From positions 3,294 to 67,293 of the forward strand of contig JBARQV010000027.1 of the NCBI GenBank assembly GCA_049643885.1: a stretch of 64,000 bases of DNA, in the 5' to 3' direction. The position numbers and the translations under genes were made by a program. The notes below the pieces were generated by a model that ran no database searches, was not told the DNA's origin, and worked only from the letters and a program-made list of their open reading frames with translations. The number at the start of each line of letters is the position of its first letter. The first letter of the stretch is position 1. This DNA comes from Candidatus Omnitrophota bacterium. GTDB taxonomy: Bacteria; Omnitrophota; Gorgyraeia; Tantalellales; Tantalellaceae. Shown piece by piece: positions 2,613 through 61,859 of the stretch.

Positions 2613-3776
2613 ATGATGGGAACGATTCTTACACGAGAAGAGCTCGAAAAACGGGAGAAGGAATGGCTTGCTCCATATGCCATGAAGAGCGCTGAAACAG
2701 GAGGGCGGGAGCATAAGGAGCAAGAACACCCTTACCGTTCGGTTTACCAGAGGGATAAAGATAGGATAATATATTCCACCGCTTTCAGACGGCTTGAATA
2801 TAAGACCCAGGTCTTCGTTAACCACGAAGGCGACTATTACCGCACCAGGCTTACCCACACACTGGAGGTGGCGCAGATCTCTAGGACTATCGCAAGAGCC
2901 CTCCGGATCAACGAAGAGCTTGTAGAGGCGACAGCCCTTGCCCACGACCTAGGACACACTCCTTTCGGGCATTCCGGGGAAGAGACCCTTGCGGAACTTA
3001 TGAAGGATCACGGTGGTTTTGACCATAATTCCCACGGTTTAAGGGTGGTGGATATCCTGGAGCAAAGATACCCTGGGTTCCCCGGACTTAACTTGACCCG
3101 CGAAGTAAGGTGCGGGATCATCCGCCATTCTACGCCTTTTGACTTGAAAAGAGCGGGGAAGGTCAAGATCGACTGCCCCCGCCTGCTTGAGATAGGGGTG
3201 GTTGATATTTCCGATGAAATCGCTTATGATAATCATGATCTGGATGACGGTCTGAAGAGCGGTTTTTTAAGCGAAGCTGACCTGAGGGGGATTCCTATAT
3301 GGGATGAGGCCGTATCAGAAGTCGAAAGGCATTACGGGGATATCGATCCCGAGACAAAAAGGTCCCAGGTCGTCCGCCATTTGATAAATCTTCAGGTTTC
3401 GGATATAATCCGGAACACCCTGGCCAGGATCGAAAAGATGGGCGTTAAAGGCGTGGGTGATCTTGACAGACAAAGAGAAAGAATAGCGGATTTCAGCGAT
3501 GAGATGAATATGAAACGCAAGTCTTTTAAGGAAGTCATGAACGAAAAGCTTTACAGGCATTACCGGGTTGTCTGCATGTCCAATAAGGCGTCGCGTTTTC
3601 TTAGACAGATGTTCAATGTTTACTCGGAAAACCCCGACCAGTTGCCGCCCCATGTCAGGGAAAAGATGGAAGAAAGAGGAAAATTCAGGGTGATCTGCGA
3701 CTATATCGCGGGTATGACCGACCGGTACGCACTGGATCAGTATAAAAGGTTTTTTGAACCCTTCGAGAGGGTATAA
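2613..3776 (+). CDS. dgt: dGTP triphosphohydrolase-like HD-domain phosphohydrolase
   Basis: The HD motif RLTHTLEVAQI...AHDLGHTPFGHSGE matches the deoxyguanosinetriphosphate triphosphohydrolase-like family. The track ORF starts at GTG 2610; the ATG at 2613 is preferred. Confidence 0.85.
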   Translation: MMGTILTREELEKREKEWLAPYAMKSAETGGREHKEQEHPYRSVYQRDKDRIIYSTAFRRLEYKTQVFVNHEGDYYRTRLTHTLEVAQISRTIARALRINEELVEATALAHDLGHTPFGHSGEETLAELMKDHGGFDHNSHGLRVVDILEQRYPGFPGLNLTREVRCGIIRHSTPFDLKRAGKVKIDCPRLLEIGVVDISDEIAYDNHDLDDGLKSGFLSEADLRGIPIWDEAVSEVERHYGDIDPETKRSQVVRHLINLQVSDIIRNTLARIEKMGVKGVGDLDRQRERIADFSDEMNMKRKSFKEVMNEKLYRHYRVVCMSNKASRFLRQMFNVYSENPDQLPPHVREKMEERGKFRVICDYIAGMTDRYALDQYKRFFEPFERV

Positions 3777-3802
3777 AGACGGCGAAGGAATAAAAGGCAT
3801 AT

Positions 3803-5293
3803 ATGGATAAATTGTTGCGGAAACTGAAAGGAAGCGTTGATCTGCGGCGCGAGATCGAGGCCTTCAGGAGATATATAAAGAATTTTGCCTGGATAATCTT
3901 CCCAAAAGTTCCCGGCAGCGTGGATGAATTAAAGAAGACCGAAGTCGGGAAATATGTGGCGAAAGAGCTTACCAGGAAGGAAGAGATCCGGAAGGGATTG
4001 GAGGATATCCTCGCGGCTCTCAAGAAATGCAAAAGGCAGAACAGTTTTGAACAGTTCCGTTACGGGAAAAGGCGGATGGGCGTATGTTACCCGCTTGTTT
4101 CCGAAGGTAAGACCTTCGGGTATATCGTTCTTTGCGGATTGAGAAGGGCGGTTCCCGAGACCCTGCAGGCGCTTTTTACTTCGTATACCGACGTGGTTGT
4201 CAGGGAGACCCAGAAAGAACTTGAGCTGGAGGAGCTTAATAAGACGGTCAGGCCCAGGGCCATTGCACTTTCCACTGTTCACACTGTTCACAGGCTGATG
4301 GGTGCCACCTTGAACATCAACGAGCTTCTTCCCCGCATAGCGCGTCTTTCGCTGCAGGTGATGAGAGCCAATCGCTGTTCGATAAAACTTGTGGACAGGA
4401 GAAGAAAGGTCCTTTTGCCCAAGACTACCATTGATCTGAGGAAGAAAAAAGCGAAACTCAAGAAGGTTACTATAGGCAAGTATGCTCCGGGAAGGGCGGT
4501 AAAACAAGCCAGGTCTATAAGAGGCAAGAACTATCTCGCCTCGCCCCTGATCGAAGAGGAGGTATTAGGGGTCATAACTCTTTACGACAAGATAGAAGGG
4601 TCGGAATTCACGGCCTTTGACGAAGAGATCATGAAGACCCTTTCGGAACAGGCTGTCATCGCCATAAAGAACGCGCAGCTTTTCCAGGAGCAGGAGGATC
4701 TTACCCTGAGCAGTATCAAATGTATAGCCCAGCTTCTCGAGACCCGCCCGAGCGGATTTCACAAGGCTGAGGCTTCTTTCCTGAAACTGCTCAGCATCAT
4801 CGGCAGGAAATTCAACATGAATGAAAGCGAGATCAAGATGCTGCAGTACGCCGCGATGCTTCACGATGCCGGACAGATAAGCATACCGGAACGAGTGCTT
4901 CTCAAGAAAGGAGACCTTACCGGAAAAGAGTACGACATAGTCAAGATGCATCCCCTGAAAGGCGCGGACATATTGTCGAAATTCAGGCCGCTGAAGCCCA
5001 TTGTTCCTATTATCCTGTACCATCACGAAAACTTTGACGGGAGCGGTTATCCCAGGGGTTTGAAAAAAGACAACATACCGTTGGCTGCCCGGATCCTCGC
5101 GGTGGTAGCGTCATTCGAGGCCATGATCACAGAGAAACCATATCGCAAGGCGCTTTCGATAAGTTCGGCGGTGAAAGAAGTCGGGAAAAATTCAGGGACA
5201 CAATTTGACCCTAAGATCGTTGAAGAGTTTTGTGAAGCCGTCGCCAGGAAAGACGTAAAAAGACTTTTGGAGAAAGAGCTTGGTATGTTATGA
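3803..5293 (+). CDS. GAF-domain / HD-GYP-domain protein (putative c-di-GMP phosphodiesterase)
   Basis: The C-terminal region HDAGQISIP...HHENFDGSGYPRGL is the HD-GYP signature. The central part looks GAF-like. Confidence 0.8.
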   Translation: MDKLLRKLKGSVDLRREIEAFRRYIKNFAWIIFPKVPGSVDELKKTEVGKYVAKELTRKEEIRKGLEDILAALKKCKRQNSFEQFRYGKRRMGVCYPLVSEGKTFGYIVLCGLRRAVPETLQALFTSYTDVVVRETQKELELEELNKTVRPRAIALSTVHTVHRLMGATLNINELLPRIARLSLQVMRANRCSIKLVDRRRKVLLPKTTIDLRKKKAKLKKVTIGKYAPGRAVKQARSIRGKNYLASPLIEEEVLGVITLYDKIEGSEFTAFDEEIMKTLSEQAVIAIKNAQLFQEQEDLTLSSIKCIAQLLETRPSGFHKAEASFLKLLSIIGRKFNMNESEIKMLQYAAMLHDAGQISIPERVLLKKGDLTGKEYDIVKMHPLKGADILSKFRPLKPIVPIILYHHENFDGSGYPRGLKKDNIPLAARILAVVASFEAMITEKPYRKALSISSAVKEVGKNSGTQFDPKIVEEFCEAVARKDVKRLLEKELGML

Positions 5294-5553
5294 AAGAGAA
5301 GATCGAAAAAGTCGTTAAAGATAAACTTAGCAGAGAGATACTGACTTTTTTCTATCAGAATCAGTCAAGCATCGATACTGTCAGCGGGATCTCAGCGTGG
5401 GTCCGCAGCGACCGTAAAGAAGTCAAAACGGCGCTTGATAAGCTTGTCCAGCTGGGCATCCTTGAGCAGGACAGCATGGGCTCCACAAGAGGCTACTGCT
5501 ATACCCGGGACCCGAAAACCATGAAGATCGTCCGGGAGCTGATGAAAGAATAA
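5290..5553 (+). CDS. small hypothetical protein (possible winged-helix fold)
   Basis: 87-aa ORF translationally coupled to the upstream gene by ATGA overlap. No recognisable catalytic motif. Confidence 0.4.
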   Translation: MKEKIEKVVKDKLSREILTFFYQNQSSIDTVSGISAWVRSDRKEVKTALDKLVQLGILEQDSMGSTRGYCYTRDPKTMKIVRELMKE

Positions 5554-6224
5554 TGCGTAAACTGGCATTTTTCCTTCCCGTTGCAATAATCCTCGCCTTG
5601 TTATCCTGTTTCTTTTTACTGGATAATATCATAGTTTTTTCAATCGGCGCTTTGTCCGATATTACGATCTCATACGAGGCCGATAAGGGCAATGTCCTTA
5701 CAGGTTCGGAAATAAAAGGGTTACAGATAAAGAACAAAAAAGGGGGCTTTAACCTCTTTGCCGAAAAAGCTTATTTAAAGGTCAAGTTAAGGCAATCCTT
5801 CAAAGAGAAGAGGCTCGTGCTTGAAAGCAGTATGCAGGCAGTGAGGTTCGAGACCAAAATTAAAAGCACGACAGGTTCTCCGTCAGAAGATAATGTCATG
5901 GCCGCTCCATTTTCAGGAGACCGGAAATACGAACAAATGGCATTTACCGCTTACATTGACAAAATGGCCGTCAAGATCAGCGGTTTCAAGGCTATGTCGC
6001 CTGACGTAAGGATGATGGGAAATTGTGTATTTTTCTGGGGAAAGGATGATATATCCCTGGACCTGAATATCTCGTTTTCGCCTGAAGCCGCGTCCGTCTT
6101 CCCGGAAGAGATCAAAAATGAGTTCCTTTCGCCGGATGAAAATGGTTGGTACAGCACTGTGATCAGCTATAAGGGAAATGCGCTTATGCTCATGGCCTTT
6201 TATTCACTTACCATGTCACCGTGA
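5553..6224 (+). CDS. hypothetical membrane-anchored protein
   Basis: N-terminal transmembrane segment FFLPVAIILALLSCFFLL. Good codon structure but no recognisable domain. Confidence 0.4.
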   Translation: MRKLAFFLPVAIILALLSCFFLLDNIIVFSIGALSDITISYEADKGNVLTGSEIKGLQIKNKKGGFNLFAEKAYLKVKLRQSFKEKRLVLESSMQAVRFETKIKSTTGSPSEDNVMAAPFSGDRKYEQMAFTAYIDKMAVKISGFKAMSPDVRMMGNCVFFWGKDDISLDLNISFSPEAASVFPEEIKNEFLSPDENGWYSTVISYKGNALMLMAFYSLTMSP

Positions 6225-6250
6225 CCCCCGGGGTATTTGGCCCCGCCCCC

Positions 6251-6278
6251 TTGATATTTGTAAATAATATGATACAAT
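6251..6278 (+). promoter_or_regulatory. sigma70-like promoter (TTGATA - 16 nt - TACAAT)
   Basis: -35 TTGATA at 6251 and -10 TACAAT at 6273, about 10 nt upstream of the SPOR-protein start. Confidence 0.35.
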
Positions 6279-6287
6279 ATAGCCCCT

Positions 6288-6905
6288 ATGAATAAGAAGT
6301 TTCAGAGTGACTTTTTCGGGGAAAATTATGCCGAAAAAAAGGCTAGAAGGCTGGAGTTCTCTCGCAAGTACTACAAACACAGGTTGTTACCAAATTTAAG
6401 GATACCCACCGAATACGCGTTCATAATCGCTATCGGGGGCCTTATATCGATGATAGTAGTTTATGCCATCGGGGTAGAAAGAGGAAAGCATATCCAGATC
6501 GAAAAGTTCGCGGGAGGCGCAGCCTTAAAAACGCATGTCCTTTTAAATAAAAGAGTTAACGCAACAACTCCGGTGGAGATACAAGAGTCGAAGCGGGAAA
6601 TCCAAAAACCGGAAGAGACCACGAAAGAGGAGACTGCCGGGGGCGAAGAAAAAGCGGAAAAAGAAGCCAGTCCCTCTTATGATATAACGGGGTATATGAT
6701 CCAGCTTGCGTCATTTAGAAATGAAAGCTCGGCGGAAAAGGAAGTAGAAAGGCTCAAAAGAATGGGGTATAACGCGGCATACAACAAGAGCGGGACCTGG
6801 TACCGGGTCTATGTTTCCGGTTACAATAAGATGAGGGAAGCCGCAAAAGCAAAAAGTGAACTTGCCGGGATCTACAAAGATTGTTATATAAGAAAGATCG
6901 ATTAA
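6288..6905 (+). CDS. SPOR-domain protein (peptidoglycan-binding, cell-division associated), N-terminally membrane-anchored
   Basis: The C-terminal ~75 aa (YMIQLASFRNESSAEKEVERLKRMGYNAAY...GTWYRVYVSGY...) is a typical SPOR domain. There is one transmembrane helix near the N-terminus. Confidence 0.75.
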   Translation: MNKKFQSDFFGENYAEKKARRLEFSRKYYKHRLLPNLRIPTEYAFIIAIGGLISMIVVYAIGVERGKHIQIEKFAGGAALKTHVLLNKRVNATTPVEIQESKREIQKPEETTKEETAGGEEKAEKEASPSYDITGYMIQLASFRNESSAEKEVERLKRMGYNAAYNKSGTWYRVYVSGYNKMREAAKAKSELAGIYKDCYIRKID

Positions 6906-7287: not shown

Positions 7288-7608
7288 ATGGTATCCTTTG
7301 AAGATTTTAAGAAGTTAGACCTCAAGATAGCGGAGATCTTGGATGTAAAAGACCATCCGAATGCCGATAAACTTTATGTTCTGAAGATCCTTGTGGGAGA
7401 GGAAACAAAACAGATCATTGCCGGCGTGCGTGGATCTTATGGCAAGGAAGATCTAAAAGGCAGAAAGATCGTTGTGATAAACAATCTTGAGCCGGTCACC
7501 ATCAGGGGCGAAGAGTCCAATGGCATGCTGCTTGCCGCGGATAATGCCGGCACACCCATCATCCTTGTCCCGGAAAGGGACGTACCGTCCGGTTCAGCGA
7601 TCAAGTAA
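7288..7608 (+). CDS. tRNA-binding protein (CsaA / Trbp111 / EMAP-like OB-fold domain)
   Basis: The sequence DLKIAEILDVKDHPNADKLYVLKILVGEE...IIAGVR...VVINNLEPVTIRGEESNGMLLAA is the Myf/tRNA_bind domain signature. Confidence 0.8.
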   Translation: MVSFEDFKKLDLKIAEILDVKDHPNADKLYVLKILVGEETKQIIAGVRGSYGKEDLKGRKIVVINNLEPVTIRGEESNGMLLAADNAGTPIILVPERDVPSGSAIK

Positions 7609-7664: not shown

Positions 7665-8339
7665 ATGCGATATAAGGGCGTAACGGCGGCCCAGATGGCC
7701 GAGATCGACAGAAGGGCGCAGGAAGAGTACAATATACCCCAGATCGTCCTTATGGAAAATGCCGGCCGTTCCGTAGCCGAGATCATCCTTTCCGAGATAA
7801 AATCCATCGAGAATGAGAGAATAGCCGTTCTTTGCGGCAACGGAAACAACGGTGGAGACGGTTTTGTGATCGCCAGTCATCTGGCAGAAAGATCCCCGAG
7901 TCGTTTGACCATCTATGCCCCGCGCCCTGAAAAGATCAAAAAGGGAGCTGCTTTCGAGAACTTCGGGATCATGCAAAAAATGGGACTTGAGATCCTTCCG
8001 GTAGAAGAATTGATCTCATCCCCGGACATATTGGCCGAATACACCGTAAGCATCGACTCTATTTTCGGTACTGGTTTTAAAGGAGACCTACCCGAAGGTT
8101 ACGGCTTTATCGGTAAAGTCTTAAATGGCTCTGGTCTTAAGCGCTATGCAGTCGATATCCCCTCGGGGCTTGATTCAACAACCGGCAGGGCTGCGGAGAA
8201 TTGCCTGAAGGCCGATAAAACCATAACTTTCGGCCTTCCCAAGCGCGGGTTTTTCATCGGCGACGGCCCGGGGGTCTGCGGTAAGATCGTGGTCCGGAAC
8301 GTCGGCTTCCCCGAATCCCTCCTTCGTGAATATATGTAA
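7665..8339 (+). CDS. nnrE: NAD(P)H-hydrate epimerase (YjeF N-terminal domain)
   Basis: Contains MENAGRSVAE...VLCGNGNNGGDGFV...DSIFGTGFKG...VDIPSGLD. Confidence 0.8.
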   Translation: MRYKGVTAAQMAEIDRRAQEEYNIPQIVLMENAGRSVAEIILSEIKSIENERIAVLCGNGNNGGDGFVIASHLAERSPSRLTIYAPRPEKIKKGAAFENFGIMQKMGLEILPVEELISSPDILAEYTVSIDSIFGTGFKGDLPEGYGFIGKVLNGSGLKRYAVDIPSGLDSTTGRAAENCLKADKTITFGLPKRGFFIGDGPGVCGKIVVRNVGFPESLLREYM

Positions 8340-8340
8340 G

Positions 8341-8361
8341 CCTCAGACTTCAGACAACAGA
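8341..8361. repeat. heptanucleotide tandem tract (cctCAGA cttCAGA caaCAGA)
   Basis: Its reverse complement matches the CTGAAGTCTGAGG motif family seen at 1574 and 15051. Confidence 0.4.
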
Positions 8362-8365
8362 CGGT

Positions 8366-8812
8366 TTTTTATTGCCTGTCCATTCCTATCAGGATGTTCC
8401 ACTGCTTATTTAAAATGCTTGTTCTGCTTTTCCCGGGTAGATGATCAACCCTTCTTTAGCGGGGACGGTCAATTTCCCCGGCGAGGAAATTGTCCTCTAA
8501 AATTTTTTCACTCTCCCTCAAGACTTCGCCTTTCGGGATCCCTGCCCGCTCAAAAATTTAAAGCCCCGCTTCCGAAAGGTTAATCATCTACCCAGAACAA
8601 AAAATCCAAACTTTCTTCACTCAGATGTTCGACTTGTCAGGGTTACGGAAAGGTCCGGGGGTGTGTTCAGTGCGAGTTTCCAAAAAAAAAGCGATTTTAG
8701 GTCGCTTTTTTTTGGACTGTCTGAGCACGGAACACACCCCCGGGCCTTTTCAACATTCAGACAAGTCAAACATCTGATGAACGTTTAATAGGAACGGACA
8801 GGCAATAAAGAC
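8366..8812. repeat. large nested-palindrome non-coding element (possible MITE or structured RNA)
   Basis: Outer inverted repeat TTATTGCCTGTCCATTCCTAT (8369-8389) pairs with ATAGGAACGGACAGGCAATAA (8789-8809). Inner arms of ~60 nt (8622-8681 and 8714-8775) are ~75% identical in inverted orientation. The central hairpin is A9-GCGATTTTAGGTCGC-T8 (8682-8713). An additional inverted repeat GGGTAGATGATCAACC (8435-8450) pairs with GGTTAATCATCTACCC (8578-8593). Confidence 0.5.
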
Positions 8813-8886
8813 CACGCCCGTCGCCCGACGATTAGACCCCCCGATTTTTGCCTTTTCATGCTTTATGTGCTATATTTTACAACGAT

Positions 8887-9978
8887 ATGAAGAAGGTACG
8901 CTTAGACCTTGCCGGAAGAAGCTATAATATCCTGATCGGTTCCGGGACAGCCGCTGAGTTGCCCCGCCAGATCCATTCTATGGCTTTTCATGGTCCGGTC
9001 GTGATCATTACTGATAAAATAGTCATGTCTAAGACGAACCGGGTTGTAGCGCCGGTCTTCAAGACCATCGAAAATGAGGTCATACGTGTTGTTGTGCCGG
9101 GCGGTGAAAGATCAAAGTCCATAGAAGTTTTTCAGGATACTATCCATGAAATATGCAAGAAGACAAAAAAACACCACCCTTTAGTGGTCGCGCTTGGCGG
9201 AGGCGTGGTAGGCGATCTTGGGGGATTTGTCGCAGCGACTTATAGGAGGGGAGTGCCGCTCATACATCTGCCCACTACGCTCTTGGCGCAGGTTGATTCC
9301 GCCATAGGTGGGAAAGTAGGCGTAGACCTCCCGGAGGCAAAGAACCTTGTCGGTGCGTTCTATCAGCCGAAGGCAGTATTGATCGATACTGATTTTCTGC
9401 ATTCGCTCCCCCGCAGGCAGATAAAAAACGGCATGGCCGAGATAATCAAATACGCCATCATAAAAAGCCGGCCGCTTTTTGAGTTTCTTGAAGATAATAT
9501 GGAAAAAGTCCTGCAGCTGAAAAAACGGGCCATTGAAAGGGTGATCCATGAATGCGTGGCCATCAAGGCGCGGGTCGTTGAAAAGGACGAGCTGGACAGG
9601 AAAGACGTCAGGATCGCTCTCAACTTCGGCCACACCCTGGGACACGCGATAGAAGCGGCTTCCGGATATTCGGAATCGTACAATCACGGGGAAGCCGTGG
9701 CCTTGGGTATGATCCTGGCCGGAGCGATGGCTTTCCGCCTGGACATGCTGAAGGAGAAAGACCTCGAGAGGATAAAAGATCTGATCAAAAGCGCCGGCCT
9801 TCCGGTGAAGATCCGGGGCGTCACGGTAAGGGACATCATGAACACACACGTTTACGACAAAAAATTCGTCACCGGGTCCAATCGTTTTGTCCTGCCGAAG
9901 AGGATAGGTTCGGTAGAAGTCGTCGAAGGGATCCCGGAGCTTTTGGTAAAGACCGTGCTTAAGAATCATGTCGAGTAA
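8887..9978 (+). CDS. aroB: 3-dehydroquinate synthase
   Basis: Contains GGGVVGDLGGFVAATYRRGVPLIHLPTTLLAQVDSAIGGKVGVDL and the HTLGHAIE metal-binding motifs. An in-frame alternative start lies at 8848. Confidence 0.85.
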   Translation: MKKVRLDLAGRSYNILIGSGTAAELPRQIHSMAFHGPVVIITDKIVMSKTNRVVAPVFKTIENEVIRVVVPGGERSKSIEVFQDTIHEICKKTKKHHPLVVALGGGVVGDLGGFVAATYRRGVPLIHLPTTLLAQVDSAIGGKVGVDLPEAKNLVGAFYQPKAVLIDTDFLHSLPRRQIKNGMAEIIKYAIIKSRPLFEFLEDNMEKVLQLKKRAIERVIHECVAIKARVVEKDELDRKDVRIALNFGHTLGHAIEAASGYSESYNHGEAVALGMILAGAMAFRLDMLKEKDLERIKDLIKSAGLPVKIRGVTVRDIMNTHVYDKKFVTGSNRFVLPKRIGSVEVVEGIPELLVKTVLKNHVE

Positions 9979-10438
9979 GAACGTATCCACGCTGCGGGTT
10001 TCATCTGCCCGAAAAGTCCAGTTCATAGATATCACTTCCGATATTTCTGATTTTGTCCGGAAAAGCGGCGTGGCCGACGGTATTTGTTTCATACACGTGC
10101 CGCACACCACGGCCGGTGTTACTATAAATGAAAATGCCGATCCCGATGTGGTCGCGGACATGATCACGGCGCTTGAACATATCGTGCCGTCACATCGCGG
10201 CTATCTGCACGCAGAAGGAAATTCGCCGGCTCATGTCAAATCATCGCTTATCGGATGTTCCGAAAAGATATTCGTAAGCGCCGGCAAGCTTCTTCTTGGG
10301 ACTTGGCAGGGAATATATTTCTGCGAATTTGATGGACCCAGATCACGAAAGGCCCACCTAAAGATTGTGGAAGGTAGAAATATGTCATCCCGGACCCGCC
10401 GAAGGCGGGATCCGGGAACAAATAAGATTATTATGTGA
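9968..10438 (+). CDS. YjbQ/UPF0047-family protein (secondary thiamine-phosphate synthase-like), with an atypical 18-aa C-terminal tail encoded by a repeat element
   Basis: The core matches UPF0047 (ITSDISDFVRKSG...HTTAGVTINENADPDV...GTWQGIYFCEFDGPR). The paralog at 15462 ends ...QIIGE, whereas this ORF runs on through the 10382-10463 element. Confidence 0.8.
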   Translation: MSSKNVSTLRVSSARKVQFIDITSDISDFVRKSGVADGICFIHVPHTTAGVTINENADPDVVADMITALEHIVPSHRGYLHAEGNSPAHVKSSLIGCSEKIFVSAGKLLLGTWQGIYFCEFDGPRSRKAHLKIVEGRNMSSRTRRRRDPGTNKIIM

Positions 10439-10463
10439 TCCCCGCTTTCGCGGGGATGACATA
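10382..10463. repeat. copy 1 of a hairpin-rich ~85-nt repeat element flanked by inverted repeats ATGTCATCCC...GGGATGACAT
   Basis: Matches 25818-25911 in its 5' ~65 nt: ATGTCATCCCGGA(C/T)CCGCCG(A/T)AGGCGG(G/A)ATCCGGGA(A/T)CAAATAA(G/A)A(T/A)TATTATGTGATCCC. It contains two internal hairpins. Confidence 0.6.
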
Positions 10464-10484: not shown

Positions 10485-10886
10485 ATGAATACAGAAAAAA
10501 TCGAAATAAGAGCGAGATATCAGGAAACAGACCAGATGGGCGTAGTTTATTATTCTAATTACCTTGTCTGGTTCGAGATCGCTCGGACCGATTATTTCCG
10601 TAAAAGAGGAGTTGTATACAAAGAGTTAGAAGAAAGAGATAAAATATATCTTCCCGTGGTTGAGGCCTGCTGCAGGTACAGAGCGCCCATTAGATACGAT
10701 GATCTGGTTACGGTTGAAACCAAACTTACCGAAGCGAGCAAATCGCGGTTGACTTTTGAATATGAGGTAAAAAAAGAAGCGAAAGTTACGACTACAGGCT
10801 ACACCAAACACGTCTTTGTGAACGGCAGCGGAAAACCCATCCCCATACCGGAAAACATCAAATCCTCACTCGTCGGTCGTCGGTAG
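10485..10886 (+). CDS. acyl-CoA thioesterase, YbgC/4HBT (hot-dog fold) family
   Basis: The sequence EIRARYQETDQMGVVYYSNYLVWFEIARTDYF matches the 4-hydroxybenzoyl-CoA thioesterase family N-terminus. The true ATG is at 10485; the track ORF starts earlier, inside the repeat element. Confidence 0.8.
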   Translation: MNTEKIEIRARYQETDQMGVVYYSNYLVWFEIARTDYFRKRGVVYKELEERDKIYLPVVEACCRYRAPIRYDDLVTVETKLTEASKSRLTFEYEVKKEAKVTTTGYTKHVFVNGSGKPIPIPENIKSSLVGRR

Positions 10887-10911
10887 TCGTTCGTCGATCG
10901 TGATTCGTGGA
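10870..10911. repeat. heptanucleotide tandem tract (TCGTCGG x2, TAGTCGT, TCGTCGA, TCGTGAT, TCGTGGA)
   Basis: Six 7-nt units span the stop codon of the thioesterase gene. Confidence 0.5.
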
Positions 10912-10924
10912 GCATCTAGCTTTG

Positions 10925-10995
10925 CGAAAACAATAAAATCTTTCCCAACCAAATTTTTTGGAAATGGGACCCTTTGATCTTATTGTTTTCGCAAT
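10925..10995. terminator. long perfect hairpin (16-bp stem TTGCGAAAACAATAAA/TTATTGTTTTCGCAA) with an internal CCAAATTTTTTGG palindrome; candidate bidirectional terminator between convergent genes
   Basis: The inverted repeat can be read directly. It lies in the ~440-nt gap between the + strand thioesterase and the - strand GspB-like gene. Confidence 0.45.
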
Positions 10996-11323
10996 GCCGA
11001 TTCCACAGAACAATTAAGTGTTGTATGCAATGCAACGCGTAGTCAGGAAAGGGTAAATATCTATGACGGCGAATGTACGCCTGACGGACCATTACAAAAA
11101 TTTAGCTTTTCCGGGCATTTTAAGCTGAAGTTGTCAGGGCTATTAAACATGTGTAGGCATGGCAACTGTCCGAGCCCCGAGTATTCCTGTAACGAGGGGC
11201 GAGTTTTGTCATGTCAGCTTAAAATGTCCCGAAAAGCGTTAAGAATTTTTGTCGGGACGGAAGGCATGCATTCGCCGTTTTAGTCCTTTAACATATAAGC
11301 GACGAGGAAATTATGAAGATGAA

Positions 11324-25817: not shown

Positions 25818-25911
25818 ATGTCATCCCGGATCCGCCGTAGGCGGAATCCGGGATCAAATAAAAATATTATGTGATCCCGGGTCTCGGCCTGCGGCCTCGC
25901 CCGGGATGACA
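25818..25911. repeat. copy 2 of the hairpin-rich repeat element (ATGTCATCCC...GGGATGACA)
   Basis: See 10382-10463. It ends 8 nt before the radical-SAM gene ATG. Confidence 0.6.
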
Positions 25912-25918
25912 AATTATC

Positions 25919-29868: not shown

Positions 29869-30107
29869 ATATCCAGATATCCCCAAAAAAAGCACAATTA
29901 AAAGTTTAATTAGCTAGATAGCGCCAAAAATCCCTCCATTTTTAATTAACCCAAATTTAATCAAATTCAAATAATTACTTAACGTGCATGCTATATACTT
30001 GAAGTGTATGGCGAATACATATATATATGTGTATTCGCTTGAAATACGTTGAAATGTTAGGTAAACTAAAAGAGTGTAGCAAAAGACGCTCTTTCTTCTT
30101 TGAAAAT

Positions 30108-30235
30108 TCGCGAAAGGCAAACCCCGTGAAAGCGGGGGGCGCAAAGCTTGAGAGCCTAAAGCCGTTGGCTATGGCAGTCAGTTGCCGAATGGGAAAAATT
30201 AAAAACCCATAGCTTCTCAGGCTATGGGTTTTTTG
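30108..30235 (+). promoter_or_regulatory. c-di-GMP-I (GEMM) riboswitch-like leader, copy 1, with terminator expression platform
   Basis: AAAGGCAAACC; P2 hairpin CCCCGUG-AAA-GCGGGG carrying a GAAA tetraloop; GGCGCAAAGC; tetraloop receptor CCUAAAG...CUAUGG. The arrangement is close to the Vibrio Vc2 class-I aptamer. A terminator follows at 30205-30235 (ACCCAUAGC-UUCUCAG-GCUAUGGGU-U6). Confidence 0.8.
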
Positions 30236-30248
30236 CTATATACGATGC

Positions 30249-33200
30249 ATGGTGAGGTTGGCAGAAATGAACAATAACAATTCTTTAAGAGTATGTATTA
30301 TTATCCTGGCAATGTTATTTGCCTGGACGAATTGTGTCTACTCTCTGCCGAAAGTCGACGAGGTCGTATCCGGCGAAGCAGAAGTAAAGATGGTCGATCC
30401 CAACACCATGCAGATCAATGCCACCGACAACACCATCATAAATTACCAATCATTTAACATCATGGAACACGAATCGGTTATCATCTCTCTCCCGAATTCA
30501 AGCAGCGAGATCCTTAACCGGGTGATAGGGCCTGACCGCAGCGACCTCTTTGGTAACCTGTCATGTAACGGGATATTTATCCTCGTGAACCAGAACGGGA
30601 TCTATGTGGGGCCGAACGCTAATATAGAAGCGGCAAGCGCGATCCTTTCGACAAGGGACATAACCGACTCCGATTTTATCGATGGGCAATATCTATTCCA
30701 GAAACTCTCCGATGAAGAGATGGACATGCTCCTCCTCAACGAGGGCACCATAAGGATCCAGGACGGCGGCTTCGGCGTCCTGATAGCCGGGGCGATAGAG
30801 AACAATGGTAAGATCATAGCCCCGTGCGGTAAGATAGTCCTGGCAGGGGGAGACGCCATAAAGCTTAACATGTCGGCGAATGGCCTGATCTCCGTCGCCA
30901 TCCTGGAGAAAACGGCTTCCAAAATATATGACCATGAAGGGAACCCCATACTTGACCAGATCAAGAATACCGGCGAACTTCGGGCGAACGGGGGCGCCGT
31001 TATTCTCAAGGCGGAAAGCGTAACCGATGTCTTTAGAAGCGCTATAAACCTGGAAGGGGTGGTCGAGGCCAACAGGGTAGAGGACAAAGACGGTGTTATA
31101 AGCATAGTGGCCGATAATGATGTAACGATAAACGCGGAAATGGCAGCAACTAGCATTGATATTAAGACTGAATATGATATTGACCTGGACGCTAATATCG
31201 TTGCTTCCGAAGGCGACATACTTCTTTTTGCCGATTATGACGGAGACGGGATCGGCAGCTTCAGGCAACACGGCGGCCTGATCGAGGCGACAGGTGAAGG
31301 GGATATTTATATCGAAGGCTCCGGGGAAATGGTCCTTGGGGCCGTCAAGACAGAGCTGGGTGCGATCAAGATAGGCACCCAAAGGGAGCCTTTTTCCATA
31401 ACGGGCGAACCTCATTATATCCATTCAAAGGGAGATTTTGAGATCACCGCGATGGATGAGGGCGAGGAGGTGACCACCCTCCATACCAGCCGGGGAGATG
31501 TCCTGAAATACAACACCACCGGCAAGGTGATCCTTGAGGCGGCGGACGGCAGGATCGAACAGCTGATCCAGGAGCCGTTGCCGGCGGGATATCTGGAACT
31601 GAAGGCCAGGACATTTGACGTTAATTCAGAAGCAGATGTTACAGTTATCAATGATATTGATAGTAATATTTATATTGAAAAGCTGATAGAGATCTCGGAA
31701 GATGTAGTTTCCCTGGAAGGCGAAACGACCGGCAGGGTCACGTATCTTATCTCGAATGATATTGTCCTCCAGACCCCTCATGACGTGGACACTGCCCCCG
31801 GGGTTATTATCCCGGGAGATAATGTCAAGATAACCGCCAGAAGAATAGGGTCAAACGACTCACCTGTGGGTATTTCTGCCAACCTCACCTATATCCATAG
31901 GATCCAGGGAGACATCGTCATCTCCGAGATCTGGGGTCTCGGGACAACAATATGCATCAGGGGTCCTGACCCGGATACGAACCCGGATAGCTGGGGAGCG
32001 ATTAATTTAAATAAAAATACAGACCTTATATTGGAGGCCTCTCAAGGAGGTCTTTTTATATCTGAAAATTGTGCTCTTCAAGCACAAAATCTCACATTAA
32101 TCGCAAGCCAGGGCATAGAAAATTACGGCTCTTTATTGGTCGAGAACGGAACCCTCACCCTTACGGCGGAAGGCGCCGTAATAAGCCTTGGCTCCTTAAG
32201 GGCCGAGACCCTTATAGAGGAGGGCGCCTCTTTTGTGGTCGGAGGAGAATATATAGTAGGCTACGCAACCGCCCGGAACGCAGATAACGCTGTAACACTT
32301 TATACGGGAAACTATTCAGGAGAAACCAGCGATACAGGCGACATTGCTGTCAAAAATAACAACATTATAACCCTGGTGGGAGACACTATATTCCGCGCTG
32401 ACAGCGACCAGAATGGGGTCGGGGGTTTTAAGCCTCAAGTTGGCTCCAGCATTGTAGGAGGGGGATATAATCTTTGGATATATGGTTCCGAGAGCTCAAC
32501 CCTTCGGCAGATAACAGGCGTCGGGACTCTTTCGCTATATAGATCCTACGCAAGCTCAAATCCCTATTATATTGATTATAGTGCCTGGAGCGTGGGGAAT
32601 TTGATCATTGGCGCAGGTATTTCGTTAGATATCCAAGGTGTGGGTTTAACATTAAGTGGAAATTTTACAAATAACGGCACATTTGTGTCAAATAACGCCG
32701 TCATATTCAGCGGCGCCGGTACGTCAAATATTACAGGAAATATCACATTTAACAATCTTACCTGTACTACCGCCGGCAAGATCCTGAAATTCAAAGAAGG
32801 CCAGACTTTTACCATAAACGGGACCCTTGCCCTGACAGGAACATCCGGCAATGAGATCGTTCTCGACAGCCAGAACGGTTCAACGCAATTTACGTTTAAA
32901 GTGGCCAGCGCCCAGAGCGTCAGCTACATAGTTGTCGCAAACTCTAATGTCGACGATACTTCAGGCGGCAATATAACCGCCTCTAACTCTTATAATGACG
33001 GCAATAACGATACCGGACCCACGGGACGTTACTGGGCAGGGCTTCCCGCGGCAACATATTCTGTTTACGGGGCAGTATATTCCGACCAGGGTTCTACGCT
33101 GATGGGCGCGGGTGTGAATATAGTTCTGGCGAGAAACGGAGTGGTCACGGCCAACACAAATACGCTTGCGAGCGGCCAGTACGCTTTTCACGGACGAGCT

Positions 33201-36200
33201 TTCTCAGCCAATGATGTGGTTTTGATCTACATAAACAATAGTACCACAAACGGTAATGTGGTAGTAATTGTAGATGCTGCCAGGATAACCGGGGCGGATA
33301 TATACGGGAACACTGCTATCGCCAGGCACCAGACGGCGGGACCCGTCACGAACGCGACATTTTCTACAGCTAAAGGCTCCATGACGGATACGGATATAAT
33401 CTATTCGGTGTCCGGTTCCAACTTGGAACTGAATGAGGGAGTGAGCTTTGTGGTATGGACAGGCGATACATATACTCCGGGTGGAAATCTTTATTGCAAC
33501 GATGTTGTCGTGCAGTCAAGCGCTATATTCAATGCCGCCGCGGGCTCTACAATAAGCGCCTCAGGCGATTGGGCGAACAGCGGCACGTTCAATCCCAGCA
33601 CATCGACCGTTATCCTTACCGGCGGAAGCGTGCAAACGCTGACTTCAGGGGGGTCTTCGTTCAACAACCTTACGATTGCGGGCGTAGGCACGTACAGGCT
33701 TCAGGATGCCCTGAATGTTACCGGCACCCTTGCTATATCAGGGTATTCCTACAAAAAAGCGATCGTTATAGATAATACAAAAGTAAACGCTGATCTGACG
33801 AATTTTCCGGTCCTTTTCAGCGTTACCGACAGCGATCTGGCGGTGACAGGCAGCGGCGGATATGTAACGAGTTCCAACGGTTGTGACATTATCTTTACCG
33901 ATCACGCCGGGGTCCAGCTGGACCATGAGGTCGAGTCATACAACCCGGCGACCGGACAGATCATCGCATGGGTGAAGGTGCCGAGCCTGTCAAATTCCAC
34001 AGACACGACGATCTACGTCCATTACGGTAACAGCGATATCATAACCTCGCAGGAGAACCCGACAGGCGTATGGAGCAACGGTTTTGCCGCGGTCTGGCAT
34101 CTTGGTTCATCCATAAATGATTCGACAAGCAACGGCATCACAGGCACAAATAACGGGACAACGGAAGAGACGACTATCGTAAAGGTGGGCACAAGCACTT
34201 ATTTTAACGGTTCAGAATCCGATTATATCAATTATGGCGAGCCGAGCGCGCTCGATATAAGTGGGAACAACCCGATCACCATCGAAACCTGGGTATACTT
34301 TAACTCGGTCGCTGCAAACTATCAGGATTTCTTCTCAAAAGGTGACACGCAATACCACTTACAGAAAAATAACGCAGATCCCGGGGTAATACAATTTGTT
34401 ATTTATGACGGAGACTGGCAGCTTGTCCAGGCGGACAGCAATGTTTCAACAGGAACCTGGTATCATGTTGTAGGGACATATAATGGAGTAAGCGGCGGGG
34501 CACTGGAGCTTTATATAAATGGCTCCAAGCAGACAGGCAGCGACACAGCTGCATCGATCAACAATACGGCTTATAGTGTCTATATGGGCGAGAACAGCCA
34601 GTCAACCGGCCGCTACCTGGACGGATATATGGACGAAGCCCGCATATGCAACGCCTACAGGACTGGTGGCTGGATACAGACCGAGCACAATAACCAATCC
34701 TCTCCTTCGACGTTTTATCCTAATTACACTTCGGAAGCACGGACCACCGGTGACAGTGCGACGCTTTGTCTGAATGGCAAGAACCTCTCTACCGCAACAC
34801 TCAATAATACCGGGACCCTGAGGCTCCTGGGGGCAGAAACGGTAAGCATAACCACGATGGATACAGATTCAGGACTGGTTGATTATTATGGAGACGGTTC
34901 ATATACGGGACTGGCGGCGGGGGACAGCTACTTCGACCTTACGTTTTCGGGGACCGGGGTCTATACCCTTGATGCCGATCTGGACATAAACGGTGATCTT
35001 TCCTTTACGCCTACATTCCAGTACAGGAAGGAAATAACCATTTACGCCTCACAGGTGGATGCGGACGTGACCGATTTTCCGGTCCTTTTCAGCGTTACCG
35101 ATGCTGACCTGATCGATAACCTGATGCACGACGCGAATTACACTATCAAGTTCACCAACGCGACCGGGACCGAGCTGCCATATGAAGTAGAGTATTACAA
35201 TAACGCAACAGGCCAGCTGATAGCATGGGTCAAGGCCGATTCATTATCCTCGAGCACCAATACAACGCTGTGGCTGTATTACGGCTCGCTGGAAGCCGAC
35301 TCCACGGAAGCAGCGACCAGCGTGTGGAGCAACAATTATTCGGCCGTGTGGCACATGAGTGAAGCGTCGGGGACTATCTATAATTCAACATCTTATCCCA
35401 ACAACGGGACCGCCGCCGGGGGCATTACTTACGGCGCAGCCGGAAAAATAGACGGATCTGTCAGCCTTGACGGCGTTGATGATCGGATAAACTGCGGGTG
35501 GGATCCAAGCCTGTCGCCCTCGAATGCGATCACCGTTTCCCTTTGGACGCAGAATGCCGTATCTCCGGCGCAATATGACGGCATCCTCGGCAAGACAAGC
35601 AGCTTTAAATGGGACGACGGGTACGGCATGTTTTACAACAGCTCAACCGAGGTCCGTTTTTATGTATCAAATTACAGCGCGAATGTCGCTTACGCGTCCT
35701 TGACGCCCACGAACATGAATTATATTGTCGGCACGTTTGACGGTTCGAATGTGCGGATATATGTAAATGGCGTAGAGGGCACGGCAGATCCGTATGCAGG
35801 CACCATATCATCAACGGCAGCCATGTTAGTGCTGGGCCAGTTATCGGGAACTGCATACAATATCAACGGCAAGCTGGATGAAGTCCGCGTTGCCGGCACA
35901 TGGCGTCCGTCCGGCTGGATCTCAACAGAATTCAAAAACCAGAATTCTCCCGGCACGTTTTTCGGCACCGGAAGCGAGATCAGCGGCGGCGCTACCATAA
36001 ACGCAGGAAGCTATGACATCAACAGTGCAGGCGATTTTGATCTTACAAGCGGCATATTTGATGCCGGTACGGGCACGGTTATATTTGACGGGGTATCCAC
36101 CCAGACCCTGACCACGGCCTCATATGATTTTTACGGTTTGACCGTCTCCAACGCCTCCTCAAACGGTGTTCAGCTTGCAGATGCCCTTACCGTTACGAAC

Positions 36201-39200
36201 GCTCTCACCATATCGACGAATGGCGTTTTTGATCTCCAGGATAATAATATGACGGCAACAGGAGCTGTCTTTTCGAACGACGGCACGCTCAGGCTCGTCG
36301 GATCGCAGGCGATAACGGGCCTTGTTATGGACACCGATTCGGGCACGGTGGAATATACCGGCGACGGTGATGCGACTCAGGAGACCTTTACGATCAAGGA
36401 TTTCGGCGCTATCGACTATTATCACCTTTTGATAAATGACACTAATGCCACGACCGCCAACCGGGACATTATTTCCGTAGGCGTGGGAACAAACCTGAAC
36501 GTCGACGGGGATCTTACAGTTTCCGGGGGAACGTTGAATATTAACGGGCAAAGCGTCAACATCGCCGGGAATTTCAGCGTGAGCGCGAGCCCGGACGCGA
36601 GATATCAGCAGGGCGGCGGCAGCGATAATACCTTCGATGGCAGCGGTAATGCCACCATTGATACCGGGGGAACAGATGACGACCACGATCTTACCCGCTT
36701 CATCGTGGACAAGTCCGGCGGAGCCGTTCTTACCGTGATAAACAATGGCGTGGATATAAATGAGAGCCTTACGATCACCAACGGTGTTCTTAGCTTGAAT
36801 GGCCAGAATATCACAACGACCACCACATTTTCAAATTCCGGAACCCTGCGTCTTCAGGGGAATGAGAGCGTGTCTTGGACCACGAACGACACTGATTCAG
36901 GCAAATGGGAGTATGTTGGTGATGGCGATTCCCTGGCGGACACATACACGATCAAGGATTTCGGGACCCCGGATTATTATAATCTGACCATCAATTCTAC
37001 TGACGGCGTGACCGACACATTCCAGCTCGGCGCCGCATTGGATGTTGACAGAAACCTCACCATTACTTCCGGCCGGCTGGATGCCAATAGCCAGAACATC
37101 AATCTTGCCGGCAACTGGATCAAAACCGGCGGGACCTTTGACAGCGGAACTAATACCGTTACATTTGACGGGGGGAGCGCGCAGACCATGAATTCCGGCG
37201 GCACGGATACAGGAAGCGATTTTAACAACATCACCGTATCCGGCTCAACGGTCCAGTTAATAGATAACGCGGTCGATATCGACGGCACTTTGACCATAAA
37301 TTCAGGCAAGGTCTTTGACCTTAACGGCCAGGACTTCACCCTCGCGACACTTGATAACAGCGGTACCTTGCAGCTCGAGGGGACGGAGACGGTCGCGATA
37401 ACCACGATGGATACCGACTCAGGAGAGGTTCTCTATACCGGATCGGGTTCTTATACAGGCCTTGCGGCGGGGGATAACTATTACGATCTTACATTTGCCG
37501 GGATCGGGAGTTATGCTCTGGATGCCGCTTTAGACGTAAACGGCTCTCTTGCAATATCAGGTTATTCCTATAAAAAAGCGATCGTATTGGAAAGCGACCA
37601 GGTAAGCGGCACTGCCGACCTGACGGATTTTCCCGTGCTATTTAGCGTTACGGATACCGATTTGAGGACAACGGGCAACGGTGGGCAGGTAACGGATCCC
37701 AACGGTTACGATATTATCTTTGTGGATTCCAACGGGGACCAGCTCGACCACGAGGTCGAAGCGTACAACGCCGCAACCGGGCAATTGATCGCGTGGGTAA
37801 AGGTTTCCGCGCTGGATTATAATGATGACACGACAATCTATATTTATTACGGCAACAGCAACATTACAAGTTCCCGGGAGAATGCTTCCGGCGTGTGGAG
37901 TAATTCTTACGCGGCTGTATATCACCTTGGCGAAGCCGGCACCGGAACGGCAGGCGATTACCAGGATTCCACTTCAAACAGTAATGATAGCGTGAGCACG
38001 AGCAACCAGCCTTCACAGACAACCGGCAAAATCGACGACTACGGCCAGTATTTTGACGGGTCTGAGGCGATACGCATTGCCGATGCTTCTTCGCTTGAGC
38101 CGACATCCATGACCATTTCATGCTGGTTCAAAAGAGACGGAGCCCAAAAGGACTGGACCAAGATCGTGCATAAGGGGCAGGGGAATAGCCCGTTCGGTTC
38201 TTATATACTGCAATTGAGCGCGGATGAGACGGAAGCAGAGTTCCAGGTAGCCAAGACGACCCCGGACTATGCAAAGGCAAGCAGCGGGACCGGGGCTGTC
38301 GCGGATGATACCTGGTACTATCTGGTAGGGACCTACGACGGGACCACCTACGACGGGATTTTATATATTAACTCCGCAAATATCGATAGTTTTAACGATA
38401 CCGCCCCTCTTTATTATGAAACCACCGGGCTTGGGATCGGAGGGCCCGGTTATAACGCTTATAATGATGCGGCAATCGGAGTTGTAGACGAAGTCAGGAT
38501 ATCGAGTGCCGTCCGCACCCAGGGCTGGATCACCACTGAATACAACAACCAGAATACTCCCTCAGCGCTTTATCCGACTTATACGTCAGGGAGCGGCCAG
38601 ACTGCCGGCAGTGCCGGAACGCTGGACGCAGCCGGATATAACATGAACATCGGCGGCAGCTGGACGAACTCAGGGACGTTCACGCACAACAATAATACGG
38701 TCATATTTGACGCGAACGATGCCGATAATACCATTACTTCCGGCGGCTCTTCCTTTAATAATGTCACGATCTCGAGCGGCACCTATGCCATGCAGGATGC
38801 CATGGTCATAGACGGCAATCTTACCACATGTCCCTGGGCGGATGAGTATTCTTACAGGAAGACGATAACAATAGAATCGGATTACGTCGACGCGGATGTG
38901 AGCGACTTCCCGATGCTCTTCAGTGTCACCGACACGGATTTGATAGACAACGTGATGAGCGGTTCGAACTACACGATCAAGTTCACCAATTCAACCGGGA
39001 CAGAGCTTCCTTATGAAGTTGAATACTACAATAACGGGACAGGCCAGCTTATCGCCTGGGTGAAGGCGGATTCCCTGTCAGGCAGCACCGATACGACCCT
39101 TTATCTTCACTACGGCTCGAGCGGCACTGCTTCTACGGAAAACCCGAGTGGAGTATGGAGCAATGGATATGAGGCGGTTTGGCATTTAACGGATGCGGCC

Positions 39201-48688: not shown

Positions 48689-48967
48689 CGGAACCTCCTT
48701 TATTTGGCATGCCAAGCGAGACAGGGTTAAAGAAAATAAAGAGCAATTTTATATTGTTAATATATCACTTCTAAGCGGTTTTTGCAATGAGATTTACAAG
48801 AATGCCTTCGGGGCGAGAGACCCAGAAAGGTGTTCTGTGGGGGGGGCGAAGAAGAAAATGTTAAAAAAACAAAAGGCAGTAGAGGTTTTCTTATAATATT
48901 ACTTACCATGTGCTATACTTTAACTGGAGCTACATATACGCGTTCTTTGGGATATTTGTATAAGTAA

Positions 48968-49095
48968 CGATAAAGGCAAACCTTGCGAAAGCAGGGGACG
49001 CAAAGCTCAAGAGCCTAAAGCCGGGAGGCTATGGTAGTCAGTTGCCGAAACCGAGAATCCGTGACCCATAGTCTGTCCAGGCTATGGGTTTTTTA
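48968..49095 (+). promoter_or_regulatory. c-di-GMP-I (GEMM) riboswitch-like leader, copy 2, with terminator expression platform
   Basis: AAAGGCAAACC; P2 CCUUGCG-AAA-GCAGGG, which differs from copy 1 by compensatory changes (C-G to U-A, and U.G to C-G); GGACGCAAAGC; CCUAAAG...CUAUGG. Terminator ACCCAUAG-UCUGUCCAG-GCUAUGGGU-U6 at 49064-49095. Confidence 0.8.
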
Positions 49096-49120
49096 TTTTA
49101 GAGGTAGATAGGTGCCTGAA

Positions 49121-60443: not shown

Positions 60444-60453
60444 AAGGTGTTTG

Positions 60454-61848: not shown

Positions 61849-61859
61849 AGGAGATATAA

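Follow-up and report, generated by a model that had tools for sequence, protein, structure and literature searches.

The subject of this report is a block of hairpins between the genes nnrE and aroB in a 64,000-nt stretch of DNA (the window) from an uncultured Candidatus Omnitrophota bacterium (contig JBARQV010000027.1, assembly GCA_049643885.1). The block, at about positions 8346-8830, is probably a nested mosaic of non-autonomous palindromic repeats, comparable to bacterial interspersed mosaic elements (BIME) and miniature inverted-repeat transposable elements (MITE), which was inserted in this lineage only. It belongs, as a new example, to a kind of repeat already familiar from bacteria and is not a new RNA machine. 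In the proposed scheme, hairpin A would be a copy of an element of about 150-190 nt, named M2, with 13-nt terminal repeats and a 120-nt core folding on one strand. The outer inverted repeat, P1, would be a second repeated module, and hairpin B a third long palindrome which is single-copy in the 79 kb available. To obtain these 79 kb, the genome was followed beyond the window in further assemblies of the species, L094 on the left and L098 on the right (L-numbers are labels for the loci and contigs compared with the window).

The nnrE stop codon and the aroB ATG are separated by 547 nt of non-coding DNA, which replaces the 475 nt given in the first-pass annotation. Its remark that no convincing open reading frame (ORF) is present was borne out by the 85-aa and 50-aa ORFs of the block, neither of which has a Pfam domain or protein homologues; the 85-aa ORF found no homologue in a protein search of 5.8 billion clusters and only two low-complexity chance matches among 1.84 billion representatives. 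The AroB protein of the window is 100% identical to NCBI proteins annotated as Candidatus Omnitrophota, the runner-up being 73% identical. The features of the region are as follows.

7665-8339, plus strand: nnrE (YjeF_N domain), upstream flanking gene
8346-8362, minus strand: possible outward extension of P1, pairing with 8815-8829 on the minus strand only (minus-strand minimum-energy fold)
8363-8389, unstranded: left arm of P1 (inverted-repeat search), core 8368-8389 TTTATTGCCTGTCCATTCCTAT, with a related arm CTTATTGCCTGGTCTGTTCC at L094
8413-8607, minus strand: hairpin A (M2 element copy), terminal repeats AAATGCTTGTTCT at 8413-8425 and CAGAACAA... at 8593-8607
8454-8573, minus strand: M2 core, a predicted 120-nt three-way junction (covariance model, 130.7 bits)
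8616-8781, unstranded: hairpin B, a 166-nt near-palindrome (-98.6 kcal/mol on the plus and -90.7 kcal/mol on the minus strand)
8679-8716, unstranded: apical hairpin TCC-A9-GCGA-TTTTAGG-TCGC-T8-GGA, tip of hairpin B, terminator-like both ways
8788-8823, unstranded: right arm of P1 (8788-8813), followed by a conserved right flank of about 10 nt; identity with L094 5845-5880 is 86% over 8789-8823
8848-8876, plus strand: putative aroB promoter TTGCCT-17 nt-TATATT with an upstream TG (promoter scan), which aligns in seven relatives
8887-9978, plus strand: aroB (3-dehydroquinate synthase), downstream flanking gene

Judged by comparison with relatives, the block is a lineage-specific insertion. Seven Omnitrophota (L009, L010, L012, L014-L017), whose AroB proteins are 61-73% identical to that of the window, share the gene order SPOR gene, 112-aa gene, tRNA_bind, YjeF_N, AroB, YjbQ and 4HBT. 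The short spacer which the first-pass annotation had envisaged for homologous genomes was found in all seven, with lengths of 44-163 nt as against 547 nt here. An empty site at the homologous position is thus present in these relatives, with approximate boundaries as the AroB proteins are at most 73% identical. The block is present, at 99.4-100% identity, in several assemblies of the same species. Searching 80 loci centred on AroB from other species for it with BLAST or nhmmer returned nothing. The aroB promoter is common to 8/8 genomes and lies, in the window, outside and downstream of the block; the extra sequence therefore follows the nnrE stop codon and precedes an intact aroB promoter, which marks the right limit of the insertion. 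The conserved promoter region (8838-8886) reads TTTTTGCCTTTT ... TATGCTATATTT(T/C)AC. In most genomes about 8-10 nt separate the promoter's end from the aroB ATG, which suggests that the aroB mRNA is leaderless, or nearly so, in this clade. The exceptions are L010 and L012, in which the called start is about 80 nt further downstream and a hairpin lies between the promoter and the called aroB start.

Folding of positions 8340-8830 gave -203.7 kcal/mol on the plus strand (z -13.7) and -239.5 kcal/mol on the minus strand (z -13.9), so that z is about -14 on both strands and the structure of the block is far beyond chance. The outer arms noted in the first pass are real, with their coordinates corrected to 8368-8389 and 8788-8809: this 22-nt inverted repeat, P1, has one mismatch (95% complementary). 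The 21-mer TTATTGCCTGTCCRTTCCTAT matches 8369-8389 (plus) and 8788-8808 (minus), has no further match in the window when up to 3 mismatches are allowed, and was matched in 0/100 shuffles. With one bulge, P1 can be read from the sequence as far as GGT at 8363 and ACC at 8813. Beyond this, the left side of its possible outward extension consists of three CAGAC heptad repeats, and in the alignment of the extended arms the mismatches that would be G:U pairs number 6 on the minus strand versus 1 on the plus strand; the extension is tentative because it is seen in a single sequence only.

Hairpins A and B adjoin each other within P1, and the whole forms a predicted three-way junction. The first-pass annotation had described three nested systems, which is correct for the A9/T8 hairpin within hairpin B but not for hairpins A and B, which are side by side and not concentric. 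Hairpin A contains a 37-nt repeat (8428-8464 / 8564-8600, 78% complementary), the core of which is the additional 16-nt repeat reported before, and an additional stem of 21-24 bp at about 8432-8452 / 8575-8595. Its predicted folding energy is -81.7 kcal/mol on the minus versus -57.4 kcal/mol on the plus strand, with 7 versus 0 G:U pairs. Hairpin B is made up of three helices and two internal loops and is 76% complementary over 171 aligned columns. The inner arms previously described are present as an inverted repeat, but their coordinates become 8621-8673 and 8725-8777 (53 nt, 81% complementary). The central A9/T8 hairpin was likewise confirmed (8682-8713); it consists of A9 (8682-8690), GCGA (8691-8694), the loop TTTTAGG (8695-8701), TCGC (8702-8705) and T8 (8706-8713). 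Outside the outer repeat, no significant similarity was found between hairpins A and B. Only three single-nucleotide polymorphisms were present in the block among strains (8532, 8733 and 8806), too few to inform on structure: T8532G falls in a loop, C8733T (L004 and L005) changes a G-C pair of hairpin B to G-T on the plus strand, and T8806G disrupts an A-T pair of the outer repeat.

Repeated copies of these modules were sought by self-comparison of the 79 kb together with targeted BLAST and pattern searches. No second copy of the block repeats was found inside the window. Counted over the 79 kb, there are 4 copies of the M2 core, 2 loci with P1 and a single hairpin B. The copies of the M2 core, two on the plus and two on the minus strand, are listed below.

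c1, window 8454-8573, minus strand: within hairpin A
c2, L094 5730-5849, plus strand: directly enclosed by the second P1
c3, L098 8470-8590, plus strand: in the guaA-purL spacer
c4, L094 5555-5670, minus strand: partly degraded

By BLAST, the M2 core of the window is 88%, 74% and 72% identical to the other copies, with E-values down to 1e-38. Two subfamilies can be distinguished, c2/c3 (93% identical) and c1/c4 (88%), with about 72% identity between the pairs. Copy c3 is a clean hairpin of 151 nt (L098 8454-8604), bounded by inverted AAATGTTTGTTCT in common with the window copy, which has the same end at 8413-8425 plus the extra stem of about 24 bp that c3 lacks. Both ends of c3 carry the terminal repeat AAATGYTTGTTCT; the window copy has it on the left and a partial match on the right. 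The search for further copies of the outer repeat showed that P1 recurs once outside the window, at L094 5704-5739 / 5839-5874, where 36-nt arms including CTTATTGCCTGGTCTGTTCC surround core c2, and where its right flank is conserved beyond the repeat (86% over 36 nt). P1 encloses an M2 core at both known loci. Relative to the P1 flanks, c2 is in the opposite orientation to c1 of the window and belongs to the other subfamily.

The single-strand folding of the M2 core is maintained, as compensatory changes are seen in this core of hairpin A. RNAalifold applied to three copies gave 33 pairs, 6 of them with compensatory changes, and a covariance model was built from this alignment. The model scored 51-141 bits with the copies and found only these four in 311 kb, which included 27 loci of other Omnitrophota. 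In the four-copy alignment, 95.9% of the cells were paired and 8 pairs were changed on both sides (0/500 shuffles matched this), while slid controls, in which the partner was moved by 1-3 columns, gave 27-66% paired; these figures come from four sequences of two subfamilies, with the alignment fitted to the model. The core is further characterized by conserved loops and a variable apical segment. Together, its invariant U:G pairs and the minus-strand folding energy of hairpin A point to one particular strand as the folding strand.

Other parts of the 79 kb have similar modules. About 3-4 kb to the left of the window start, L094 contains an intergenic mosaic of about 740 nt (5136-5945), which follows a tRNA-Gly(CCC) gene and a perfect bidirectional terminator (5245-5278). 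Its part at 5420-5880 holds a third repeat family (M1), a 40-nt module, M2 copy c4, and P1 around M2 copy c2. Two mosaics, each with M2, are known (L094 5420-5880 and window 8346-8830). An ORF running through the L094 mosaic had no homologue in a protein search, and the gene call in L094 extends a thioredoxin-like ORF through the repeats (329 aa versus 206 aa in L095). M1 is a family resembling REP sequences (repetitive extragenic palindromes), in which inverted ATGT[CG]ATCCCGG 12-mers are arranged around small G+C-rich hairpins. The 12-mer has 12 matches at five loci in the 79 kb.

Window 10378-10462: M1 at the yjbQ/4HBT junction
Window 25818-25912: M1
L094, about 505-610: M1
L094 1205-1305: M1
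L094 5420-5560: M1

The first of these overlaps the 3' end of yjbQ. From the sequence, M1 probably accounts for the extra 20 aa at the C-terminus of YjbQ, a protein of 156 aa here as against 136 aa in L009 and L012.

A second hairpin block of about 440 nt (10887-11323) lies between the 4HBT thioesterase gene and a 211-aa gene on the minus strand, a position at which the relatives have 0-15 nt. Its repeats are 10919-10940/10976-10997, 11054-11082/11262-11290 and 11105-11128/11214-11237. It has a fold z of -10.2, shares the 40-nt module with the L094 mosaic (window 10891-10930), and had no match in an Rfam search. A strain-polymorphic segment of 170 nt, composed of a perfect 18-bp hairpin and a 125-nt hairpin, is found in this block at about 10957-10959. 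It is carried by four assemblies (L006 2227-2396, L003, L005 and L095) and is missing from the window and from L007. The segment sits, with TTT on each side, at the exact centre of a mini-palindrome (CCAAATTT^TTTGG) located within a 22-bp hairpin's loop; no other copy of the segment was found in the 79 kb. This indel is direct evidence for hairpin modules coming and going here. When filled, the second block resembles the nnrE-aroB block in having a 22-bp outer repeat around two hairpins placed side by side. The two blocks bracket the aroB-yjbQ-4HBT operon.

Contigs of other assemblies (NCBI metagenome-assembled genomes, ENA and Logan) end inside the modules, at window positions 8488, 8634, 8647, 8703, 8725, 8734 and 10959 and at L094 5642 and 5845. 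Five of these ends are within hairpin B (8634, 8647, 8703, 8725 and 8734), and an ENA scaffold ends exactly at the site of the 170-nt insertion. Repeats, population heterogeneity or difficulties in sequencing strong hairpins could each explain them.

We infer that the modules are or were mobile. They were probably inserted into the short nnrE-aroB spacer, or copied there by recombination, upstream of the aroB promoter, and the nested appearance would follow if a module entered an existing palindrome at its centre. Mobilisation by a hairpin-recognising single-strand system, of the type formed by REP and the RAYT transposases or by IS200/IS605-like elements, would fit slightly better than that of a cut-and-paste MITE; it is weakly favoured because of the lack of target-site duplications, the strand-specific fold tolerant of G:T(U) pairs, and the variable outer stems. 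In the first-pass annotation the region had been proposed as a MITE or foldback element. The insertion absent from seven relatives and the recurrence of the outer repeat and of the hairpin A core in the genome agree with this, but the block is a mosaic rather than one element bounded by 21-nt repeats, has no visible target-site duplication and no transposase among the 27 scanned window proteins or the flank gene lists, and includes hairpin B, which is unrepeated in the 79 kb.

Several observations weigh against an origin from mobile repeats. With the nearest AroB at 73% identity, the insertion boundaries are without base resolution and there is no empty site from a close relative. When the sequence was inspected, neither P1 nor M2 nor hairpin B was found to be bordered by a target-site duplication; next to P1 (…CAGAC | GGT … ACC | ACGCC), M2 c3 and hairpin B, the flanks have at most a possible 2-nt AC direct repeat. 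A Pfam scan of 27 window proteins and the lists of flanking genes showed no transposase, RAYT or integrase. Exact-match searches with the outer-repeat 20-mer, made in collections that lack the species itself, found no parent insertion sequence with matching terminal repeats. Hairpin B, about one third of the block, is without a second copy in the 79 kb. The M2 model had no significant match in the 27 loci of other Omnitrophota, so that the families are known from one species only. None of 185,579 representative genomes contains the exact 20-mer of the outer repeat; the species is not among them, as the best AroB match there is 67%. An exact search of the JGI metagenomes gave one match, a chance one inside a coding gene. 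Finally, the compensatory changes and conserved loops of M2 are equally compatible with an RNA function. Two M2 core patterns gave 0 exact matches in viral contigs, and phage and plasmid collections searched with the block by BLAST gave none.

That the M2 core is a multi-copy family of small RNA genes, with each copy transcribed from its own sense strand (the minus strand for the window copy) and the surrounding palindromes incidental, is rather unlikely, despite a fold kept with 8 compensatory pairs, G:U pairs retained on one strand only, an advantage of 24 kcal/mol for hairpin A when folded as the minus strand, and the conservation of the unpaired GAGCGGGCA and UUUUAGAG and of the loop UCGCYGG between subfamilies about 72% identical. 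No convincing promoter or terminator was seen at any copy, and the core has neither an Rfam match nor a copy in other Omnitrophota loci; c4 is degraded, and the terminal inverted repeats, the differing outer stems and the repeat mosaics are traits of mobile DNA. Folding of a single strand is also selected for by hairpin-recognising transposases. The proposal, made in the first pass, of a large structured RNA fared less well. As one RNA of about 480 nt (about 8346-8830), for instance an antisense or scaffold RNA formed as a three-way junction closed by P1, the block would account for the z of about -14 on both strands, the -239.5 kcal/mol of the minus strand, and the P1 extension on that strand only with its 5-6 G:U pairs. 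Such an RNA is very unlikely: it is missing in 7/7 syntenic relatives and has no Rfam match, and its parts are found separately and in other combinations elsewhere. Moreover, modules that occur independently and point either way with respect to the adjacent genes do not support a single large RNA. The G:U pairs favour the minus strand by 10:1 in P1 and hairpin A but the plus strand by 4:2 in hairpin B, and the bias over all helices (12:5) is not significant; this inconsistency argues against one RNA spanning the block. Perfect helices of 23-26 bp are also unusual in functional bacterial RNA, which counts against it too. A search of the whole window with Rfam at the gathering score found only two c-di-GMP-I riboswitches, both outside the block, and an E-value search of 8200-9000 and of the other M2 loci produced only sub-threshold noise.

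An invertible DNA switch (inverton), in which either the tip of hairpin B or the stretch enclosed by the P1 arms would flip and alter transcription near aroB, was also considered and can be given hardly any probability. Inverted repeats of 22-27 bp do surround a segment of 398 bp, the M2 core has opposite orientations relative to the P1 flanks at the two loci, and several assemblies break within hairpin B. All six assemblies that span the region (window, L003, L004, L007, L094 and L095), however, have the same orientation at 99.4-100% identity. The cores enclosed by P1 belong to different subfamilies (about 72%) and are thus not flipped copies, no recombinase was found among the 27 scanned window proteins, the aroB promoter is outside the segment, and repeats, or strong hairpins that sequence poorly, would explain the contig breaks equally well. 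It is quite unlikely, too, that hairpin B, and possibly P1, arose by a local inverted duplication through template switching in replication, followed by decay, and was never mobile. The single copy of hairpin B in 79 kb and the lack of a target-site duplication would suit such an origin, as would unrelated long foldbacks at comparable sites in other Omnitrophota (L020, L025 and L034). The mismatches of hairpin B, by contrast, are clustered in two non-complementary internal loops between near-perfect helices, P1 is found at a second locus, and the sampling covers only about 3% of the genome.

The foldback in L020, a distant Omnitrophota with an AroB of 46% identity, is an unrelated nested structure of 370 nt (3640-4007) directly upstream of aroB. 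One pair of its arms is 41 nt long and 80% complementary, the other 30 nt long and 100% complementary, its fold z is -16 to -17, and its outer arms overlap the stop codon of the upstream gene and the start codon of aroB. The unrelated long foldbacks of L025 and L034 are also near aroB. For the M2 core itself, there is a small chance that it is a previously undescribed Omnitrophota element, namely a small-RNA family or the recognition hairpin of an uncharacterised HUH-type mobilisation system. If that were true, a HUH-type system inserting into palindrome centres would build nested foldbacks such as those at the nnrE-aroB block, at 10887-11323 and in L020. The core is a small, testable candidate, either for a family of small RNAs or for transposition by a system that recognises hairpins, and either outcome would leave the general view of bacterial genomes unchanged.

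Interspersed palindromic repeats (REP, BIME and MITE) are well known from Proteobacteria, Firmicutes and cyanobacteria. The Omnitrophota are an uncultured phylum represented almost exclusively by metagenome bins, and a literature search found no such palindromic repeats described for them. The defining features of REP/BIME, of the MITE classes and of SPRITE were taken from a review (PMC3184786). Like the modules of the block, the REP, BIME and REPIN repeats of Proteobacteria, whose transposase RAYT corresponds to TnpA_REP, are non-coding extragenic palindromes with many copies in both orientations, form intergenic mosaics without target-site duplication, and keep a hairpin fold on a single strand; REP elements also serve other elements as insertion targets (PMC3184786). 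The inverted ATGT[CG]ATCCCGG pairs of M1 resemble a REP doublet. M2 differs in that it measures 150-190 nt and has a branched core, whereas REP is a simple hairpin of 20-40 nt. REP/BIME are mobilised by RAYT, while here none was found among the 27 window proteins or in the flank gene lists, and the phylum is Omnitrophota.

Bacterial MITEs (for example Correia elements, Nezha, Chunjie, RPE and ERIC) resemble the block in having about 100-450 bp, terminal inverted repeats and no transposase; here the terminal inverted repeats are P1 (22 nt, one mismatch) and the repeated ends of M2. Long and very stable predicted stem-loops, an intergenic location and filled versus empty sites are shared as well (features per PMC3184786). 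In contrast to MITEs, no direct-repeat target-site duplication and no parent insertion sequence were found here, and the block is a composite of modules which is not bounded by one pair of terminal repeats. SPRITE, a repeat of Streptococcus pneumoniae resembling a rho-independent terminator (PMC3184786) and comparable to further repeats that carry terminators, is likewise a repeat-derived hairpin with a U-tract after an operon that could terminate transcription, but the terminator-like hairpin here is the tip of a 166-nt palindrome, is single-copy so far, and has a G/C stem of four pairs.

The present-day role of the block is probably incidental, as a terminator or insulator after nnrE. Transcripts of nnrE would meet very stable hairpins over about 450 nt, the last of them with a U-tract, and read-through should be stopped or processed before the aroB promoter. 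The bidirectional terminator suggested in the first pass has a plausible basis in the A9/T8 apex, but its stem is weak and it was not listed by a consensus terminator scan. Four G/C-type pairs (GCGA/TCGC) plus A:U pairs form this stem, and the calculated energies are -9.5 kcal/mol for the short form and, with the A and T runs paired, -16.8 kcal/mol (plus) and -15.0 kcal/mol (minus). The scan probably missed the apex because the A and T runs pair together. On these models, a terminator role of the apex is plausible.

The repeat families give a likely reason for the recurrent contig breaks in this species, and markers for strain typing, such as the 170-nt indel, become available. They also call for caution in annotation, since ORFs extended through repeats are artefacts, for example the 329-aa 'thioredoxin' of L094 and probably the 20-aa tail of YjbQ.

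Several other candidates were tried and rejected. Hammerhead and twister ribozymes, RNase P (by resemblance of GGAAAGGTCCGGG), parS and dif each lacked an Rfam match, the defining motif or the partner gene. A retron msr-msd was discarded as well, the neighbours being nnrE and aroB and no reverse transcriptase being present among the scanned window proteins.

Further repeats were noted in passing. A heptamer, TCGTCGG, is tandemly repeated (4.6 copies) at 10870-10901 across the end of the 4HBT gene. TCGTCGATCGTG is found just past the stop codons of the 4HBT gene (10891-10902) and of guaA (about 64991-65002; L098 8423-8434), and both sites lie immediately upstream of a palindromic module. In Candidatus Aadella gelida (L016), palindromes of the GACYATTGAC type, formed by octamer runs, occur at three intergenic sites within 9 kb (5484-5640, 6180-6334 and 7388-7569). 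A single-cell Omnitrophota genome (L019 7520-7690) has three tandem units of 56 nt, each with a hairpin AACCCCACC...GGTGGGGTT; identification of these units as a CRISPR array was rejected in favour of a plain tandem repeat.

In the window as a whole, a scan for tRNA and tmRNA genes found none, and no GC-skew switch indicative of a replication origin or terminus was found. An intact gene for a 465-aa amidotransferase is located at 60444-62002. The two c-di-GMP-I riboswitches (30106-30189 and 48965-49049, 75-80 bits) each precede a giant ORF, of 4723 aa (30249-44420) and 2084 aa (49112-55366), respectively. The riboswitches and the 5' parts of both giant genes are paralogous (30113-31150 versus 48972-50004, 68% identity). 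The 2084-aa ORF has TPS, Glug and YDG domains in the precomputed list, and a gene for a ShlB/FhaC-type transporter is located at 55367-57067 on the minus strand.

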